Sequence record: OR437326.1 | Reading direction: 5' to 3' (one strand) | Length of the DNA: 64,000 bases | Origin: Escherichia phage iGC_PHA_EC001 | In this document: piece after piece, positions 6,685 to 51,981 of the stretch | Position numbering within the stretch: position 1 is the first letter of the stretch | Layout: each line of letters opens with the position of its first letter | Translations under genes and position numbers: made by a program | The notes under the pieces: generated by a model | What the model saw: only the letters and a program-made list of their open reading frames with translations | What the model was told of the DNA's origin: nothing | The model's database searches: none

Positions 6685-7077
6685 ATGAATCTAAAGACTA
6701 AAACTGTATTGAGTTTTGTTTTAATTGTTGTTCTTATTCTTGCCGGAATGTTTGCTTATAACAAGATACGTGAGTCTGGCTACAAAGATGGTGTTGCCTA
6801 TCAAACGCAAGTATATCAAACAGCCCAAGCAAAAGCAAAACAAGATTTTGATGTTCTTCAAAAAAGAGCAGATGAAGAAAGAGCATTATTAAATACTCAA
6901 ATAAACAACTTGTCTAAAAACAATGCACAATTAAAAGCAGATTTAGAGAAGAAGAAACAAACGATCAATGAGGATACAACGAATTATGCAAAAACTAATT
7001 CTGGCAGTATGTCTTGCTTTGCCCCTAATGATGACGGGTTGTTCATCATCAACAAAAGTTTCCCCAGTTCTTATTGA
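6685..7077 (+). CDS. i-spanin (Rz-like inner-membrane spanin subunit)
   Basis: N-terminal transmembrane helix (VLSFVLIVVLILAGMFAY) then long coiled-coil periplasmic domain; o-spanin gene overlaps its 3' end in another frame. Confidence 0.6.
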   Translation: MNLKTKTVLSFVLIVVLILAGMFAYNKIRESGYKDGVAYQTQVYQTAQAKAKQDFDVLQKRADEERALLNTQINNLSKNNAQLKADLEKKKQTINEDTTNYAKTNSGSMSCFAPNDDGLFIINKSFPSSY

Positions 7078-7312
7078 TGAGTGTAAGGCTGTAGCCATAG
7101 AAAAGGTTAAAGGTCCAGATTCGGACTTGATGGATAAAGTATCGACACCTGTGCCATACACTAAAAATCAAATTGCAAAAGGGGTTAGTAGATCTGAAGT
7201 TGTTAACAACCAAACTCAAAACAATGCTCTTTGGGAGCAAGATAGACGAAAGGTTCTAGGTTTACAAACATATATTAAAACACTGCAAGAAAAAGGTATT
7301 ATTGCTGAATAA
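6968..7312 (+). CDS. o-spanin (Rz1-like outer-membrane lipoprotein); start may be ATG at 6986
   Basis: Signal peptide plus lipobox (LALPLMMTG|C), Pro-containing mature part with a second Cys; begins inside i-spanin gene in a different frame. Confidence 0.55.
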   Translation: MRIQRIMQKLILAVCLALPLMMTGCSSSTKVSPVLIDECKAVAIEKVKGPDSDLMDKVSTPVPYTKNQIAKGVSRSEVVNNQTQNNALWEQDRRKVLGLQTYIKTLQEKGIIAE

Positions 7313-7321
7313 GGAGGGAAT

Positions 7322-9397
7322 GTGGCAAAGAAAAAGGCAGCAGGTAGTTTAGCTGGAGTAGATATTGAAGTAAAGGCTCAACCAGGTAAACAGACTCTTG
7401 CAATGGATTTAATGCCAGAAGTTATGATTTATGGTGGTGCCGCTGGATGTGTTTCTGCTGAAACGGAATATCTTACAAAAGATGGTTGGAGGCAGATTAG
7501 TGAATATTCGGGAGAGGATATTTACCAATACAATCCTAAGAATAAGCGTTTAGAATTGGTAACACCTTATTTTGTAGAATACGATTTAAATGGAGATAAC
7601 CTATACAGAATAACAAATGGTGTAGGATTATTCCAAGAACTTAGTATGGAACACCGTTTTGTATTCTATAAGAAAAAGAAATCAAAGAAACATTTCGAGA
7701 TTCTTGTAGGAGATCTTATTGCATTACAGCAAATAGGAAAACCCCTGCAAGGTTATGTAGAAAATCCATTCGGTAAACGTGTTCCTTTTAACATACCTGG
7801 TAAAAAGAGCACTTACTTAAAAATACACGAGGTTATTTCAACAGATGATAAGAAATATTGTTTTGAGACTCCAAGCAGCTATATTGTCTTTAGACGTGGC
7901 GATCACTGCTTCGTTACTGGGAATAGCGGCAAGTCTCGTCTGCTATTGCTGAAAGCTTTAAAATACGCCTACAAAGACCCTTTGTTTGGTGGAATACTTT
8001 TCCGTAAGAACACCACTGCTCACCGTAAACCAGGTGGTCTGTTTACAGAAGCAAAACGTTTGTATCTTCCTTTACAACCACACGTAAAAGAAAGTACAAT
8101 GGATATCATTTTTGAAGCCACTGGTGGTGGAACCCTCAAATTTGACCATTTGGAAAATGATAACGTAACAGCAGAAACAAACCATCAGGGTACACAGTAT
8201 TCAATGGTAGGTTTTGACGAGTTAACCCACTTCACACAATATGAAATGCTCTATCTTCTGGGACGTATGCGTTCAGAGTCAGAAACAAGTTTCATGTTGT
8301 GCACATGTAACCCTGACGCAGATAGTTGGGTTTTGAATTGGGTGTTACCTTATCTTGATGAGGGTGGTTATCCTAGAGAAGATATGTGTGGTAAACAAAA
8401 ATATTTCATCATTGTTAACGATGAACCTGTTTTTGCTGACACACCTGAAGAACTGAAAGAAAAATATCCAGAAAACTGTTTCATGGAAAACCCTAATACA
8501 GGGGAGACAGTTGTTATTGAACCACAAACTTTCGTATTTATTGGTGGGACAATATTTGATAACCCAGAACTCATTAGGCTTAACCCTAATTACTTAGCAC
8601 AGCTTAAATCACAAACAGCTATCAAAAGAGCACAGCTTCTGGACGGTTGTTGGTTTGCACGTATCCAGAAAGAATCTTTCTTTCAACGTGAATGGTTACA
8701 TAAAATATCTTATAAAGATGTTCCTAACAATCTTAAACTAATGCGAGCATGGGATAAAGCTGTTTCAGTTCCTACAGAAACTTACCGTTATCCAGACTAT
8801 ACAACATCTGTCAAAATGGGTAAAGATCAAGATGGTAATATCTACATCTTTGGCGACTATGATTATGATGCTGTGGATGAGAAAAGTAAAATTTTCGGAA
8901 GGTTTCGAAGACTACCTGGGGAAAGGGATAACCTGATTCTAAATCAATGTAAGATTGATGGACCAGAAGTTACAGTAGTGCTTCCTAAAGACCCATCTGG
9001 TGCTGGGACAATAGAATACACAGAGTCTGCAAAGAAACTTATTCTAGAAGGTTTTGTTGTTAAACCAGATGCTATGCCAGGTAACAAGAAAAAGCTTCAG
9101 CGTTTTATGCCTTTTAGTAGTGCGTGTCAAAACGGTTTTGTTTATATTGTTGAAGATTCTTTCCCTAATGTGGAAACTTTAACCCACTTTTATAAAGAAT
9201 TGGAATCTTTCAATGGTGAAAGATCTACAGCCACTATTAAAGATGACATTCCCGATGCTGCTGCCTCTTGTTTTAATACTCTGTCAAAAGAGAATACTTT
9301 CAAAGCAGTAGCTATCCCTACAACAACAAATGCTCCTACAGGATACAGTAGAATGAACAGCGGATTTCACCAACCGTATAGTGTCCGTAAAAGATAA
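7322..9397 (+). CDS. terminase large subunit, precursor containing an intein
   Basis: After removing residues 43-201 the junction reads GGAAG|SGKS, a Walker A P-loop; ATPase/nuclease-sized protein directly upstream of portal. Confidence 0.8.
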   Translation: MAKKKAAGSLAGVDIEVKAQPGKQTLAMDLMPEVMIYGGAAGCVSAETEYLTKDGWRQISEYSGEDIYQYNPKNKRLELVTPYFVEYDLNGDNLYRITNGVGLFQELSMEHRFVFYKKKKSKKHFEILVGDLIALQQIGKPLQGYVENPFGKRVPFNIPGKKSTYLKIHEVISTDDKKYCFETPSSYIVFRRGDHCFVTGNSGKSRLLLLKALKYAYKDPLFGGILFRKNTTAHRKPGGLFTEAKRLYLPLQPHVKESTMDIIFEATGGGTLKFDHLENDNVTAETNHQGTQYSMVGFDELTHFTQYEMLYLLGRMRSESETSFMLCTCNPDADSWVLNWVLPYLDEGGYPREDMCGKQKYFIIVNDEPVFADTPEELKEKYPENCFMENPNTGETVVIEPQTFVFIGGTIFDNPELIRLNPNYLAQLKSQTAIKRAQLLDGCWFARIQKESFFQREWLHKISYKDVPNNLKLMRAWDKAVSVPTETYRYPDYTTSVKMGKDQDGNIYIFGDYDYDAVDEKSKIFGRFRRLPGERDNLILNQCKIDGPEVTVVLPKDPSGAGTIEYTESAKKLILEGFVVKPDAMPGNKKKLQRFMPFSSACQNGFVYIVEDSFPNVETLTHFYKELESFNGERSTATIKDDIPDAAASCFNTLSKENTFKAVAIPTTTNAPTGYSRMNSGFHQPYSVRKR
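7448..7924 (+). mobile_element. mini-intein (159 aa) inserted in the terminase Walker A motif
   Basis: Starts Cys (CVSAETEYLTKDGW, Hint block A-like), ends ...HCFVTGN followed by Ser +1; splicing restores GGAAGSGKS; too short for an endonuclease domain. Confidence 0.7.
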
Positions 9398-47832: not shown

Positions 47833-48044
47833 TAATCTTCCTCCAGATCAATTTCATTATAACAATGTATACAGAAACCATCATTGTGCATATGTTGTTC
47901 ATAAGACATATCTTTACCACAAGACCAACAACGGATATCCCCATCGTCCCATTCACGTTCTTCTTCGCCTTCAAATTCATCTGGTAGGTAAGGCATACCA
48001 AAATAATCTAAATCGTAACTCATATCTTCTCCTACCGAGTCCAC
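47832..48044 (-). CDS. small zinc-ribbon protein (70 aa)
   Basis: CWSC ... CIHC Cys4 pattern; acidic. Confidence 0.35.
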   Translation of the reverse strand: MDSVGEDMSYDLDYFGMPYLPDEFEGEEEREWDDGDIRCWSCGKDMSYEQHMHNDGFCIHCYNEIDLEED

Positions 48045-48622
48045 TCCTTACGTTGTTCAATATGTTCAAGCATATCGTTATACAATGTTTTAAGATGTGG
48101 AACAACTCTTTGATCTTCTGTTTCAAAAAACTTTGTAAGCTGTTCTGCTTTAGCTTTCAACCAACAAAGATGTGCCTCAAGTTCAGTATCAAAACGTCCG
48201 AGCGTTATAATACGACCATCTACTTTTATATGGGCTTTATATTTCTTACGATCTTTTTCGTAATAGAAGCCTACCATAGTGCCATGAGATCTTTTACTTA
48301 CCCTGTAAGCTAAAAACTTGTTAAGATCCCCTGTTACTAAAAGGCAGGTGGCGGGAGAGTAAACTCTCCCTCCTATGATATCTTTATCGAGTTCTAAGTT
48401 TTCCCAGTTATCCCAAGTTTTCAACCAAGTATAGAAGTTGGAAAACAGTTTCCATTCTTCACAGACCGTCACTCCATGATAACAAGGATCACGTTCTTGT
48501 TGGCAAGGGGAGTAACATCTCCCCAACATAGCCATCCATTTCATATAAGCAGGATGAGTTCCATGTTTATCCTTCACCACAATATGTCCATCGAAAACAC
48601 CAACACCATATACTGTTCGCAT
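48032..48622 (-). CDS. AP2-domain DNA-binding protein, homing-endonuclease-like
   Basis: C-terminal segment GFYYEKDRKKYKAHIKVDGRIITLGRFDTELEAHLCW fits the AP2 fold signature; N-terminal W..M..RC...Y.GV.VC..W motif common in phage HNH/AP2 proteins; lies next to the intein-containing polymerase. Confidence 0.45.
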   Translation of the reverse strand: MRTVYGVGVFDGHIVVKDKHGTHPAYMKWMAMLGRCYSPCQQERDPCYHGVTVCEEWKLFSNFYTWLKTWDNWENLELDKDIIGGRVYSPATCLLVTGDLNKFLAYRVSKRSHGTMVGFYYEKDRKKYKAHIKVDGRIITLGRFDTELEAHLCWLKAKAEQLTKFFETEDQRVVPHLKTLYNDMLEHIEQRKEWTR

Positions 48623-48648: not shown

Positions 48649-51600
48649 TCAATGACATGTGGCCCAAGAGTTACCCACATCATATCCGGCAGTAAGCTGA
48701 ACGTTAAGATTGTAAAATTCTCCAGCCTTAGTAACAGCTAAAGCAGCAAGTTCTCCTGCCCGACTATAAGCTGTAAACCATCCACCTTTGGGAGATTCAT
48801 GAATGTTAGCCCAAATTTGTCCCGTTTCTTTTTCCTTATTATGCTTCCATTCTTCAACTTTAGCAAGGCATTCTTTATCAATTTTCTTTTGTTCTTCGGG
48901 ATCGTCTACTTTCTTCCAACCTAATGATTCAGGTGAAAACCATTTAAATTCTACAAGGTTACGAGAAACTTCAAGCTGGGCTTCATCGTGATATGCAATC
49001 ATTTGTTGCACGAAATCTTTATTCTTCCAGTCATCTTTAAAGAAGTCAACACTTAGTCCTTCTTCTTCGATCATGTCGTCATAAATAACCATTGCACGTT
49101 TAGCACAGATAACCCCACCACTTTGGAACAGAGAGTTAAGAATCGCGTGAGCAGAACGAGTAGGAACCTTACGACCGTCAATACCCAAAACATATTGTTT
49201 ACCAGTCTTAACCCAAAAATCGTTTAAACGTTCTTTAAGACGCGCCAATGGGAATGCAGCTTCCCAGAAAGCATCAAACACCAATTGACCTGTAAACTTA
49301 TCGCTACCAATTGTTTTAGCAACCTTGTCGGCTTGTGCACCATAGGTAATACCATACTTAACAGATTTAGCAGGACTACGTTCAAATTTACGTCCAATAG
49401 TTTCAGTAATACGTTTTGCCATCATTGTGTGAACATCATTAGGTTTCTCTAACAACAGAGCGTTACAATACTCGTGTGGCTCCGGCTCGTACCGCCAACA
49501 GTTTCCTGTGATGGTAATGCAGTCTTTCTGACGCATGACCCACGTACCAAGTTCTGTTTGTGGACACCAAACATCCTCTACACCCCACTCTTCAATAGTC
49601 AAACTTTGAACAGGAATGTGAGAGCGGTTAGTCAATGTTGCCACTTTTACTTTCTGCTCTTTTGTATTGAAAGCTACAGAGATATTGCCTCCATGCACCA
49701 GGTACGAGGCAGTTAAAGCTGCTTCAAAAAGTTCACCTGGGTTCTGCGCCCAACGCCAAACAGGTTTTTGTTTATGTTCGTGCCAGTAACCATCTGCAAT
49801 CAAGAAACCTTCCAAGAAAGCTACACGCTCGGCATGAGACATATTAACTACACGTTCTACCCACGGAACATCCCATTTACCTTGTTGAACAGAAGTTAAA
49901 CTATTTACCTGATCTTGTTCCATGTTAAATGGAGCATTACAAATAATGTTATCTCCTGTGCAAAGCTCGGCAGTTGTTCTGACTTTAGGCACATAAGTAT
50001 TCCCTTTACTACGGGTATTAACATACCAACGGTGATCTGCTGTTGCACGGTAAGTGTGTGATTTCCCTTTAATCTCAAACGTCTTACTATTTTTATAGAA
50101 GACCTTACCTTTTACTTTAGTCCATTCTTTCAGACCTGTTTCAGCATTGTACCCTAAAATCTCATCCCCTTCCTTCAGGTCGTGATATCCTACCCAACCT
50201 TTACGAGTCAAAGCTTGAGCATCCATCGGCACACAGTAGTGTGATTCAATTTTTGCTTCCAAAGAGTCGAAGTCGTAGCCGATCTGGAAGTATTTAGGAA
50301 CCTCTACACCAAACAAGTTACGCATCTCCCACCCAAACAAAGATGTGACACGAGGAATATTAGCTACAGATCTATGCTTCATACGAGAGGTTGCAGCATC
50401 ACATGTAGCGGCTGGGGTAGGAATACGCCCATCCGCCCTTACTGCGGCTAAGAAACCTTTATCGTATTCTTGATCTTCTTCATCTTCTTCCCAATCAGCA
50501 CCGCCACCTAAAATAGAGTTCCTACGATGCTTATACGTTAAGTATTCTACAATCTGTGTAGCATAAGGAAACTTCTCACTCAAAGCTTGCAGGTTAGGAC
50601 AAATTTCTTTTTCCTGACCTTTGGTAAAACACGGGTTAGTCAATACTTTAAGACCGCGACCTTTACCTTTTGCTATACGCTCTTGAATCTTCCTTTCCAG
50701 GGTTTCCGGTGTGCACTCCAGATGATCACAACGATCCTGACAAAAATTAGAAGATAGAGTTTGCTCAACGTAAGCTCGGATACCTTTCTGAAGTTCTTCC
50801 TCGCTCTTTTTAATCTTGGTGCCAGATTTAAGAGTCAAGTCTTTATCTTTATATTCAGACGGTACCCAACCTAATCCTACAAGCCAGTTTTTAATATGGG
50901 TTGTATCGTTTAATGTTGCAGGAATGTTAGGATCACATAGAGGTTCATCTGCTGCAACTGGCAGTTTCCACTCTTTCCCCAACATAACTAACCACCAATC
51001 GCCATCCCTCTCTTCCAAATGACCATCATGTTTCTTAGCAAAATTGATCATATGGTTAGTTGGCTCTAAGTTCTTTTTAATTTGCAACTTAGGTGGAATA
51101 AAAGCCTTAAGATAACCTTTTGTTGCTGGTTTAGGTGGCAAAATAGGCTCAACGAGTAAACGAAGACGCTCCATTTCTGCATCCAAAAAAGCAAGGTTCT
51201 CTTCTGCTTGTTTCATGTTAAAAGCAAACCCACGGTGTTCCTGGCGTGTAATAATGTCTGCTACACGTTGTTCAAGTTCAAATGGACCTTCCCATTTATC
51301 ATAATCACCCCATTCTTCCATAAGGTAATTATATACACTTGTATTGGCTTTGTTGTCATAGATACAGTAATAAAGCATATCCGCAGCAAAAGTCTTAAAT
51401 CGATCTTCTTCTGGAATCTCTTTACGGAAATCTATTTTTACATCACCACCTGCTTTTCGAGAAAGTGCTGCCAAACTATGTCCTGATTTGCCCTCAATCT
51501 TTCGATCTGGGTTTAACACTTTACTCAAAATCAAGGAGTCAATAAGTTTTACCTTATTTTTGCCCCACGTATTATATTTAACACTGTAATCTAATCCATA

Positions 51601-51981
51601 AAACAGTTTTGTAGCCAACCAGTCGTAGTTGATACCGTTGTGAGCCACAGCCATTTCAACCAGATATTCAGGCTTGTCTTTAAAATAACCTTCATGATTA
51701 ATAAAATCTGGGAAATCTTTTAGTTGAAAATGTGTGTAATCTTGCGCCACATACTCTTTAAGAACATATGTGTATTTACCATCTGACTCTTCATAAGGAC
51801 GCCCATCAAAGATGTATTTAGGGCCATCGTGGAAAGCTACTATTTCTCCTGTTTCATGGTTCTCTAAGACAATACAGTGCATTTGAAATGTGTCTTTGAG
51901 ACGATAAGGACTAGCTAAATAATCAATAGTGTCATTATTCAACAATCCGTTTGCTTCAATATCCCATGTAAACTTACTCAC
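48649..51981 (-). CDS. family A (T7-like) DNA polymerase with 3'-5' exonuclease domain, precursor containing an intein
   Basis: N-terminal DIEANGL (Exo I); motif A DFDSLEAKI; after the insert KSVKYGITYGAQADKVAKTIG (motif B region); C-terminal GIDGRKVPTRSAHAILNSLFQSGG and ...GNSWATCH match T7 gene 5 polymerase pattern; GTG start. Confidence 0.85.
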   Translation of the reverse strand: MSKFTWDIEANGLLNNDTIDYLASPYRLKDTFQMHCIVLENHETGEIVAFHDGPKYIFDGRPYEESDGKYTYVLKEYVAQDYTHFQLKDFPDFINHEGYFKDKPEYLVEMAVAHNGINYDWLATKLFYGLDYSVKYNTWGKNKVKLIDSLILSKVLNPDRKIEGKSGHSLAALSRKAGGDVKIDFRKEIPEEDRFKTFAADMLYYCIYDNKANTSVYNYLMEEWGDYDKWEGPFELEQRVADIITRQEHRGFAFNMKQAEENLAFLDAEMERLRLLVEPILPPKPATKGYLKAFIPPKLQIKKNLEPTNHMINFAKKHDGHLEERDGDWWLVMLGKEWKLPVAADEPLCDPNIPATLNDTTHIKNWLVGLGWVPSEYKDKDLTLKSGTKIKKSEEELQKGIRAYVEQTLSSNFCQDRCDHLECTPETLERKIQERIAKGKGRGLKVLTNPCFTKGQEKEICPNLQALSEKFPYATQIVEYLTYKHRRNSILGGGADWEEDEEDQEYDKGFLAAVRADGRIPTPAATCDAATSRMKHRSVANIPRVTSLFGWEMRNLFGVEVPKYFQIGYDFDSLEAKIESHYCVPMDAQALTRKGWVGYHDLKEGDEILGYNAETGLKEWTKVKGKVFYKNSKTFEIKGKSHTYRATADHRWYVNTRSKGNTYVPKVRTTAELCTGDNIICNAPFNMEQDQVNSLTSVQQGKWDVPWVERVVNMSHAERVAFLEGFLIADGYWHEHKQKPVWRWAQNPGELFEAALTASYLVHGGNISVAFNTKEQKVKVATLTNRSHIPVQSLTIEEWGVEDVWCPQTELGTWVMRQKDCITITGNCWRYEPEPHEYCNALLLEKPNDVHTMMAKRITETIGRKFERSPAKSVKYGITYGAQADKVAKTIGSDKFTGQLVFDAFWEAAFPLARLKERLNDFWVKTGKQYVLGIDGRKVPTRSAHAILNSLFQSGGVICAKRAMVIYDDMIEEEGLSVDFFKDDWKNKDFVQQMIAYHDEAQLEVSRNLVEFKWFSPESLGWKKVDDPEEQKKIDKECLAKVEEWKHNKEKETGQIWANIHESPKGGWFTAYSRAGELAALAVTKAGEFYNLNVQLTAGYDVGNSWATCH
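49501..50235 (-). mobile_element. intein (245 aa) after polymerase motif A, with LAGLIDADG-like motif
   Basis: Begins Cys (CVPMDAQALT), block-B-like TADH, LAGLIDADG-like LEGFLIADGY, ends ...ITITGN followed by Cys +1; excision brings motif A next to the conserved downstream palm sequence. Confidence 0.65.

Follow-up and report, generated by a model that had tools for sequence, protein, structure and literature searches.

The window studied here was a 64,000-nucleotide stretch of Escherichia phage iGC_PHA_EC001 (sequence record OR437326.1), which was almost identical to Escherichia phage Mt1B1_P17, a myovirus resembling phAPEC8 and belonging to the genus Phapecoctavirus. Two of its genes, encoding the precursors of the terminase large subunit (TerL) and of a family A DNA polymerase, were each found to be interrupted by an intein ending in Thr-Gly-Asn (TGN), that is, with Gly in place of the penultimate His. 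The terminase gene was 100% identical to TerL of Mt1B1_P17, and Pfam Terminase_6N was matched by amino acid residues (aa) 202-460 of its product with an E-value of 5e-17. The positions of the genes, the inteins and the active-site residues are collected in Table 1. Based on all analyses, it was concluded with high confidence that both inserts were active cis-splicing inteins of one large family, occurring mostly in phages and metagenomes, in which the TGN ending was ancestral, and that the two genes were colonized independently. Splicing activity was inferred, since essential Walker A and polymerase motifs were interrupted and since homologous inteins splice (PMC7891396, PMC5050341).

The terminase intein began with CVSAETEY and ended with CFVTGN, the latter being followed by SGKS, and its excision restored a Walker A motif, YGGAAG/SGKS (here and below the slash marks the insertion point). 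The ending had been named in an earlier reading of the DNA letters (the sequence-only reading) and was borne out, as nucleotides 7910-7924 read TTCGTTACTGGGAAT and were translated as FVTGN. The set of residues expected of an intein was present (C1, H69, N159 and S+1). An empty site was provided by Vibrio phage K406, the TerL of which was uninterrupted (MIYGGSAGSGKSRLL), and the TerL of Vibrio phage 501E54-1 carried a 146-aa TGN insert, ending in FITGN, exactly at the position of the K406 empty site. In the phage collection, the terminase intein was recovered at an identity of at least 73% from ~130 records of Phapecoctavirus, Justusliebigvirus and related Klebsiella phages, and no intein-free terminase of these genera was seen in a spread sample of the terminase-extein matches, which was a sample and not every record.

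The terminase intein was modeled by AlphaFold2 (AF2) as a HINT fold with a predicted local distance difference test score (pLDDT) of 67. The top Foldseek match of the model was 6ZGQ, the AceL NrdHF intein (E 1.6e-5), and its two AceL NrdHF chains were the only matches at E≤0.001. Weaker matches were nearly all intein, hedgehog or bacterial intein-like (HINT) domains, besides a few low-probability matches to Tudor domains at E>0.4. No match to the terminase intein was found in Pfam at E≤1, and no intein was found when it was used as the query of a single-sequence phmmer search against the PDB.

The polymerase intein (CVPMDAQ...ITITGN) was followed by CWRYEP, and both its coordinates and its ITITGN ending had been given exactly in the sequence-only reading. 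It likewise held the expected set of intein residues (C1, H68, N245 and C+1). The polymerase intein was polymorphic. Its insertion site, referred to as site A, was uninterrupted in the PolA of phage nieznany (KIESHY/TWRYD), and the polymerases of the window and of nieznany, after in silico excision, were both 865 aa long, and their alignment was gapless with 97.9% identity. The AF2 model of the polymerase intein reached a pLDDT of 92 and a predicted template modeling score (pTM) of 0.89. Its top Foldseek matches were the endonuclease-containing inteins TliVMA and PI-SceI; the ranking did not discriminate between class 1 and class 3 folds. With Pfam intein models the polymerase intein scored 16.6 bits, below the cut-off of 35.8, and a single-sequence phmmer search against the PDB gave marginal matches only.

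The insert within the polymerase intein was composed of a helix, AFLEGFLIADGY, followed by a beta-beta-alpha-beta-beta arrangement in the AF2 model, and corresponded to half of the usual two-motif intein endonuclease. The size class of 236-262 aa, to which the polymerase intein belonged, comprised 92 of the 146 full-length family copies described below. Given this share of the family, the single LAGLIDADG module may be conserved, and it may act as a homodimer or have another role.

Table 1. Coordinates of the two intein-bearing genes, the inteins and their conserved residues in the window.
Feature	Position	Strand	Basis or remark
Terminase large subunit precursor gene	7322..9397	+	Open reading frame (ORF) list; 691 aa, GTG start
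Terminase mini-intein, 159 aa, no endonuclease domain	7448..7924	+	aa 43-201 of ORF; Walker A insertion
Terminase intein Cys1, block A position 1	7448..7450	+	Sequence
Terminase intein block B 7-12, SMEHRF (Ser66, His69, Arg70, Phe71)	7643..7660	+	Aligned with AceL NrdHF S65-P-N-H68-R69-M70
Terminase intein Cys138, block F position 4 (class 3 branch-point position), in YCFETP	7859..7861	+	Equivalent to AceL NrdHF Cys124 in HCLSVPG
Terminase intein Thr157-Gly158-Asn159, then Ser+1 (flagged ending)	7916..7927	+	Sequence
Family A DNA polymerase precursor gene	48649..51981	-	1110 aa; Pfam DNA_pol_A
Polymerase intein, 245 aa	49501..50235	-	aa 583-827 of ORF 48649-51981; just past motif A (DFDSLEAKIESHY/C)
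Polymerase intein Cys1	50233..50235	-	Sequence
Polymerase intein block B 7-12, TADHRW (Thr65, His68, Arg69, Trp70)	50026..50043	-	Sequence
Insert of ~105 aa, single LAGLIDADG-like half domain	49621..49938	-	AF2 secondary structure; weak Pfam LAGLIDADG_3 matches
Polymerase intein Cys224, block F position 4, in VWCPQTE	49564..49566	-	Sequence
Polymerase intein Thr243-Gly244-Asn245, then Cys+1	49498..49509	-	Sequence

Some further observations were made around the polymerase intein. The nieznany polymerase, with site A empty, carried a different intein of the TGN family, 324 aa long and 32% identical to that of the window, in motif B (KYG/CTYG; positions 3001-3972 of L004). The window counterpart was an empty site B, KYG/ITYG, at ~49350/49351 on the minus strand. 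The two sites lay 50 aa apart in Phapecoctavirus polymerases, the window being occupied at A only and nieznany at B only, and the site A and site B alleles appeared to be mutually exclusive. The extein differences between the two polymerases were clustered, with 12 of 18 falling in extein aa 583-651 (49294-49500, minus strand) and 6 lying at most 10 residues from site A, including the +1 residue (Cys versus Thr). Such clustering looks like co-conversion or target-site divergence around homing sites. Directly downstream of the polymerase gene, a 196-aa ORF was found at 48032-48622 on the minus strand. Its nieznany counterpart was annotated as an HNH endonuclease, and it may be a free-standing homing endonuclease beside an intein-bearing gene.

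The relationship between the two inteins was examined by direct and by profile comparison. The inteins were ~18% identical over the aligned columns, and direct BLASTP matched only their ends: the identity was 33% over 30 aa at the N-terminus (E 0.004) and 35% over 23 aa at the C-terminus (E 0.12). These matches were too weak on their own, and a profile comparison was therefore used. A polymerase-type hidden Markov model (HMM) was built from 104 members, with all terminase-type and window sequences excluded. With this HMM, scores of 286.5, 46.9 and 41.8 bits were obtained for the polymerase intein, the terminase intein and AceL NrdHF, respectively, whereas the class 1 controls Npu DnaE, gp41-1, Ssp DnaB and Mxe GyrA, the sequences of which were entered by hand, obtained 1-22 bits. 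With the reciprocal terminase-type HMM, the polymerase intein scored 21.7 bits against 3.6-9.5 bits for three controls, and no match was reported for Mxe GyrA. The scores of Npu DnaE were 15.0, 3.6 and 8.3 bits with the polymerase-type HMM, the terminase-type HMM and a six-sequence A2 profile, respectively. When a 12-sequence terminase-type profile was aligned with the 104-sequence polymerase-type profile by HHalign, a full-length match was obtained with a probability of 99.8% and an E-value of 5.6e-29. In a six-frame scan of the window with the polymerase-type HMM, the polymerase and terminase inteins were recovered at E 9e-86 and 4e-12, respectively, and no third intein of the TGN family was found.

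At the level of sequence profiles, this evidence for homology of the two inteins was considered decisive. The kinship proposed in the sequence-only reading, for which an alignment of the two inteins had been suggested as the check, thus extended well past the terminal tripeptide despite the ~18% identity. The shared ending also proved to be part of a shared variant active site, as had been proposed. Denoting the conserved positions by intein block and position, both inteins lacked the His of block G (G:6 was Gly) and that of block F (F:13 was Val), and both carried Arg at B:11, Cys at F:4 and Thr at G:5. The subclade motifs differed, being SMEHRF, YCFETP and RR in the terminase intein versus TADHRW, WCPQTE and RQ in the polymerase intein.

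As word-indexed protein searches yielded no more than 5 and 10 matches, most of them fragments, an exhaustive search was needed. A query profile of six TGN members was run by HMMER against 1.84 billion cluster representatives, which resulted in 11,732 family matches at E≤1e-3, 3,350 at E≤1e-10 and 133 at E≤1e-30. The TGN ending was therefore no peculiarity of this phage but a trait of a family thousands strong, residing in many host genes. Conserved residues were counted in the 146 full-length copies contained in the 150 top-scoring proteins of this search. Cys at position 1, His at B:10, Gly at G:6 and Asn at G:7 were present in 146 of 146 copies, and Cys at F:4 in 145. Position B:7 was Thr in 141 copies and Ser in 5, B:11 was basic in 138 (Arg 83, Lys 55), B:12 was Trp in 128, and G:5 was Thr in 136 and Ser in 6. 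The +1 residue was Ser in 75 copies, Thr in 45 and Cys in 26. Split matches added an N-terminal Cys in 58 of 59 cases, the exception being Pro, and a C-terminal TGN in 35 of 39. Over all scored C-termini, Gly was penultimate in 183 of 185 and the full TGN was found in 171 of 185, and over all scored N-termini Cys1 was found in 204 of 205, in copies down to 20-30% identity.

The family signature consisted of Cys1, a block B motif T/S-x-x-H-(R/K)-(W/F/M), a block F (W/Y/F)-Cys with Cys at position 4, the lack of His at F:13, and TGN. The signature residues C1, His B:10 with a basic B:11, Cys F:4 and T-G-N were all present in both window inteins. All relatives inspected from tblastn and protein searches started with CV(D/P)..TE.L(T/S)..GW, carried (Y/F/W)-Cys ~20 residues before the end, and ended in Gly-Asn; the endings other than TGN among them were CGN in the ribonucleotide reductase of SP3 and SGN in P0001. 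Their hosts were TerL (Vibrio, Gordonia and Avunavirus phages), PolA (nieznany and the Pseudomonas KIL phages), PhoH, RtcB, ribonucleotide reductase, primase-helicase and a small DUF protein. This pattern at both termini was seen again in 11 independently fetched phage relatives, located in TerL, PolA, PhoH, RtcB, ribonucleotide reductase and primase-helicase.

Two peculiarities were noted among the metagenomic members. The proteins P0027, P0029, P0024 and P0123 were 2,200-2,900 aa long and contained from two to several family copies each, with at most 7 matched intein stretches per giant protein and two full-length copies in P0123. The only one of the 205 N-termini without Cys belonged to P0112, in which the copy from aa 134 onwards started with PVPQSTEILT... 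and ended with ...VWCPTTGLGSWVARDAEGRIFLTGN/C. This Pro1 copy may have lost Cys1 independently of AceL NrdHF, as a second such case in the TGN family.

It could be argued that two unrelated inteins each lost the penultimate His and ended in TGN by chance or convergence. The penultimate His has indeed been lost repeatedly, being Ala or Ser in DnaE, Ser in KlbA and Gly, Lys or Ser in phage inteins (PMC4031507, PMC5050341), and its absence is common among the inteins of phages (PMC5050341). However, Gly and TGN were nearly universal among the relatives, hence the common ending was not a matter of chance. The family-specific profile homology and the co-inheritance of Cys1, Arg B:11, Cys F:4 and Thr G:5 in both inteins likewise contradicted such an origin, which was rejected as very improbable.

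An origin by recent transfer between the terminase and polymerase genes within this phage lineage was weighed as well. TGN, Cys1 and the block F Cys were common to two inteins of a single genome, the ends of which matched by BLASTP at 33% and 35% identity, and this would be expected of such a copy. The overall identity was nevertheless only ~18%, with differing subclade motifs, and the nearest relatives of each intein were found elsewhere. The polymerase intein belonged to the core of the family (median identity 37%). Its nearest relatives were ~50% identical, and nearly all of those checked resided in other family A polymerases, a primase-helicase being the host of one; its identity to inteins of unrelated family A polymerases was 45-53%. 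The terminase intein was an outlier with a median identity of 21%. Its nearest non-orthologues, at ~30%, were found in the 1181-aa metagenomic protein P0098 of the representative library, in a phage PhoH and in an unannotated phage protein, the splice junction of which was P-loop-like, and profile searches added RtcB, ribonucleotide reductase and primase-helicase as hosts. Together with the HMM scores, the identity and subclade comparisons refuted a recent transfer, which we regarded as practically excluded.

It was concluded from these comparisons that the TGN ending was inherited from the family ancestor and resulted neither from convergence nor from a recent copy between the genes. The two inteins are taken to be distant cousins from different subclades that colonized their sites independently. 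Of the earlier suggestion that one lineage had invaded two essential genes, the single homologous family was retained, while a local or recent event was not compatible with the ~18% identity and the different subclades.

Further, the family was compared with characterized inteins. When the family profile was searched against the PDB, the top match was 6ZGQ, the AceL NrdHF intein (E 6e-12), and the next match had an E-value of 3e-5. A 38-aa C-terminal peptide gave no match in the PDB; the 6ZGQ crystal carried the C124A and N146A mutations. AceL NrdHF is a phage-like metagenomic intein of proven class 3 with Ala1 and a Met-Cys-Thr triplet, which ends in T144-G145-N146 and lacks His at F:13 and G:6 (PMC7891396). 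Its C124A and C124S variants were inactive, T144 forms a hydrogen bond with His68 and its replacement by Ala slowed the reaction 10-fold, the distance of Arg69 (B:11) to the C-scissile carbonyl is 2.5 A and the R69A variant was slow, and G145H showed no activity, since His would clash with Arg69 (PMC7891396). Like the window inteins, AceL NrdHF has the TGN ending, no His at F:13 or G:6, and a phage-like contig. Its block B SPNHRM (S-x-x-H-R-M) resembles SMEHRF of the terminase intein, and its block F HCLSVPG (hC(L/F)x(V/T)P) resembles YCFETPS. Unlike the window inteins, it starts with Ala1, is a natural split intein whose halves are separated by a GIY-YIG endonuclease gene, resides in a ribonucleotide reductase beta subunit, and has no counterpart of the RR/RQ pair found after block F of the window pair.

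The second characterized relative was the RDF intein of mycobacteriophage Bethlehem (gp52 in GenBank), a 317-aa intein of the form CSW...TANHRV...VWCLRVPNG...LTGN/S, which scored 58.6 bits with the family HMM. According to Kelley et al., it splices efficiently and its G316H variant accumulates precursor, and conservation of the penultimate His is poor among mycobacteriophage inteins, in which Gly, Lys or Ser takes its place (PMC5050341). It shares Cys1, the block F Cys, TGN and the deleterious effect of Gly-to-His with the family; it differs in its full, active two-motif LAGLIDADG endonuclease, its actinobacterial host and its treatment as a class 1 intein. The Gly-to-His replacement was thus made in two family members and impaired both, which indicates that Gly is functionally preferred. 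The variant C-terminal chemistry suggested in the sequence-only reading was accordingly non-canonical but not new, Gly-to-His having been assayed in AceL NrdHF (PMC7891396) and in the Bethlehem RDF intein (PMC5050341).

The boundaries, homology, residue conservation and fold of the window inteins being direct observations, we infer the roles of the residues and the order of acyl transfer from AceL NrdHF. Thr G:5 would form a hydrogen bond with the block B His, holding it at the N-scissile bond. Arg B:11 (Arg70 in the terminase intein and Arg69 in the polymerase intein) would contact the C-scissile carbonyl and substitute for the penultimate His in Asn cyclization. Gly would be kept at G:6, as a larger side chain would clash with Arg B:11. 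A comparable arrangement is found in the Ssp and Npu DnaE split inteins, which also lack the penultimate His (Ala or Ser) and carry a basic residue at B:11, and which differ in Asp F:4, His F:13, the class 1 mechanism and the cyanobacterial origin. Arg73 of Ssp DnaE was proposed to aid Asn cyclization. Such DnaE-type compensation by a basic residue was cited by Hoffmann et al. (PMC7891396).

Several points weigh against this interpretation. B:11 was Thr in three terminase-type relatives, namely Av-05 TerL, SP3 ribonucleotide reductase and BCP8-2 RtcB. Compensation by Arg is therefore not universal, and another residue must serve in these inteins; a conserved Arg or Lys two positions past F:13 (R149 in the terminase intein; 89% basic) is a candidate helper. 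AceL NrdHF has Ala1, so that transfer of its mechanism to members with Cys1 may fail. The AF2 confidence for the terminase intein was only moderate (pLDDT 67). Finally, the residue census was limited to the best 150 matches of a profile of six TGN members and was hence enriched in the signature; the census scores of 120-220 bits were independent of the few signature columns.

The splicing class of the two inteins was then considered. The class 3 signature is Trp B:12, Cys F:4 and Thr G:5, after Tori et al. (PMC2807308). The full triplet was found in the polymerase intein (W70, C224 and T243), and the terminase intein carried F71, C138 and T157, with Phe replacing Trp and Ser at B:7. A variant first residue also occurs in known class 3 inteins, as Met-Cys-Thr in AceL NrdHF and as Phe-Cys-Val or Phe-Cys-Ser. 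The +1 residue was class 3-like Ser in the terminase intein and Cys in the polymerase intein; Cys is also the +1 residue of Bvi IcmO, an accepted class 3 intein. Class 3 inteins are also defined by the lack of Cys, Ser or Thr at position 1, from which both window inteins deviated by their Cys1. This position-1 criterion was reportedly relaxed by Tori and Perler in 2011. N-terminal Cys is absent from class 3 by the working definition of Hoffmann (PMC7891396). Of the class 1 features, the nucleophile residue at position 1 was present in both inteins as Cys1, and the penultimate His, the usual Asp F:4 and His F:13 were replaced by Gly, Cys and Val, respectively. By sequence, both window inteins thus combine the Trp-Cys-Thr signature of class 3 with a retained Cys1. 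The co-occurrence of Cys1 and the class 3-type block F Cys in both inteins had been overlooked in the sequence-only reading and is more interesting than TGN.

The canonical class 3 inteins MP-Be DnaB, Msm DnaBi1 and Mch DnaB1 are similar to the window inteins in Trp B:12, Cys F:4 and Thr G:5, in their association with phages, in their P-loop and helicase insertion sites and in a +1 residue that is mostly Ser or Thr, and they differ in having Ala or Pro instead of Cys at position 1 and a Thr-His-Asn ending (PMC2807308). When the PDB was searched with the family profile, no canonical class 3 sequences were matched at E≤10.

A catalytic thiol at F:4 is favored by the occurrence of the block F Cys together with Trp and Thr, by the prevalence of Ser and Thr at +1 and by the precedent of AceL NrdHF. 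By analogy with that intein, Cys F:4 very probably acts as the thiol of a class 3-type Cys-His-Thr triad. If Cys F:4 attacked the N-scissile bond directly, splicing could be purely of class 3 and Cys1 a dispensable relic. The complete Trp-Cys-Thr of the polymerase intein, the Phe-Cys-Thr of the terminase intein, Ser or Thr at +1 in 82% of the family copies and the Pro start of the P0112 copy all point in this direction. Inteins with Trp-Cys-Thr and Ser1 or Cys1 are said, following Tori and Perler in 2011, to splice without the N-terminal nucleophile. Three of this kind were listed by Tori et al. in 2010 (PMC2807308), and the nearest characterized homologue, AceL NrdHF, is proven class 3 (PMC7891396). 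A dispensable residue should however drift, as seen from Ala, Pro and Gly in canonical class 3, and Cys1 was retained in 204 of 205 copies. The class 1 TxxH motif was also kept, with Thr B:7 in 97%. Since Cys1 persisted over very divergent copies alongside TxxH, it is not likely to be dispensable, and a pure class 3 mechanism was considered rather unlikely.

Conversely, Cys1 could be the sole initiating nucleophile of an ordinary class 1 mechanism, with the block F Cys acting as a helper in place of Asp. Cys1, TxxH and a +1 nucleophile were all present, the Bethlehem RDF intein was handled as class 1 by Kelley et al. (PMC5050341), Cys is the second commonest residue at F:4 after Asp according to reviews (PMC4031507), and Tori and Perler knew of inteins with Cys at F:4 that did not belong to the class 3 clade (PMC3196547). 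The block F Cys of the TGN family was nevertheless 99% conserved together with Trp B:12 and Thr G:5, which makes up the full class 3 triad rather than a loose substitute for Asp, and it is the obligate nucleophile in the homologue AceL NrdHF. An ordinary class 1 mechanism was therefore judged slightly less likely still. We proposed that splicing would proceed via both thiols, Cys1 and the block F Cys, and favored this route over pure class 3 and pure class 1, with a confidence evenly balanced between acceptance and doubt.

Neither of the two inteins was annotated as an intein by Pfam, NCBIfam (TIGR01445/TIGR01443) or PHROGs above the cut-off. This failure of the curated models reflects poor coverage of the family and is not evidence against the identity of the inteins. 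Because the standard models miss the family, the precursors carry plain labels, and in most Phapecoctavirus and Justusliebigvirus records of GenBank they are named "terminase large subunit" or "DNA polymerase I". One GenBank record labels the terminase insert as "N-terminal endonuclease domain", and the polymerase intein is annotated in a few records, e.g., that of PaulScherrer. Inteins were stated to be unreported in coliphages in 2024 (PMC11162368). No publication was found that describes the terminase intein of these coliphages, or a family defined by Cys1, the block F Cys and TGN as such. Inteins that lack the penultimate His and have a class 3-like active site are already known, and two homologues of the window pair have been studied by experiment.

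Just upstream of the terminase gene, two overlapping ORFs were noted on the plus strand (6685-7077 and 6968-7312). A membrane helix lay at the N-terminus of one product, a signal resembling that of lipoproteins (LALPLMMTGC) was present in the other, and their equivalents in phage Av-05 were annotated as Rz-like spanins. From these features the ORFs look like an i-spanin/o-spanin pair.

Small, fast and His-free inteins of this type, AceL NrdHF among them, are of interest for use in protein ligation. For the phage, the terminase and the DNA polymerase would function only after splicing, so that intein activity would gate both packaging and replication. For the evolution of inteins, the family unites the nucleophile of class 1 with the catalytic triad of class 3, both nearly invariant, and bears on the passage from class 1 to class 3. 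It is tentatively suggested, as a less probable possibility, that the TGN inteins form a mechanistically distinct two-cysteine family, from which class 3 inteins would arise upon the loss of Cys1, as in the independent cases of AceL NrdHF (Ala1) and P0112 (Pro1). If this were true, the class 3 mechanism would be polyphyletic and not the outcome of a single event.

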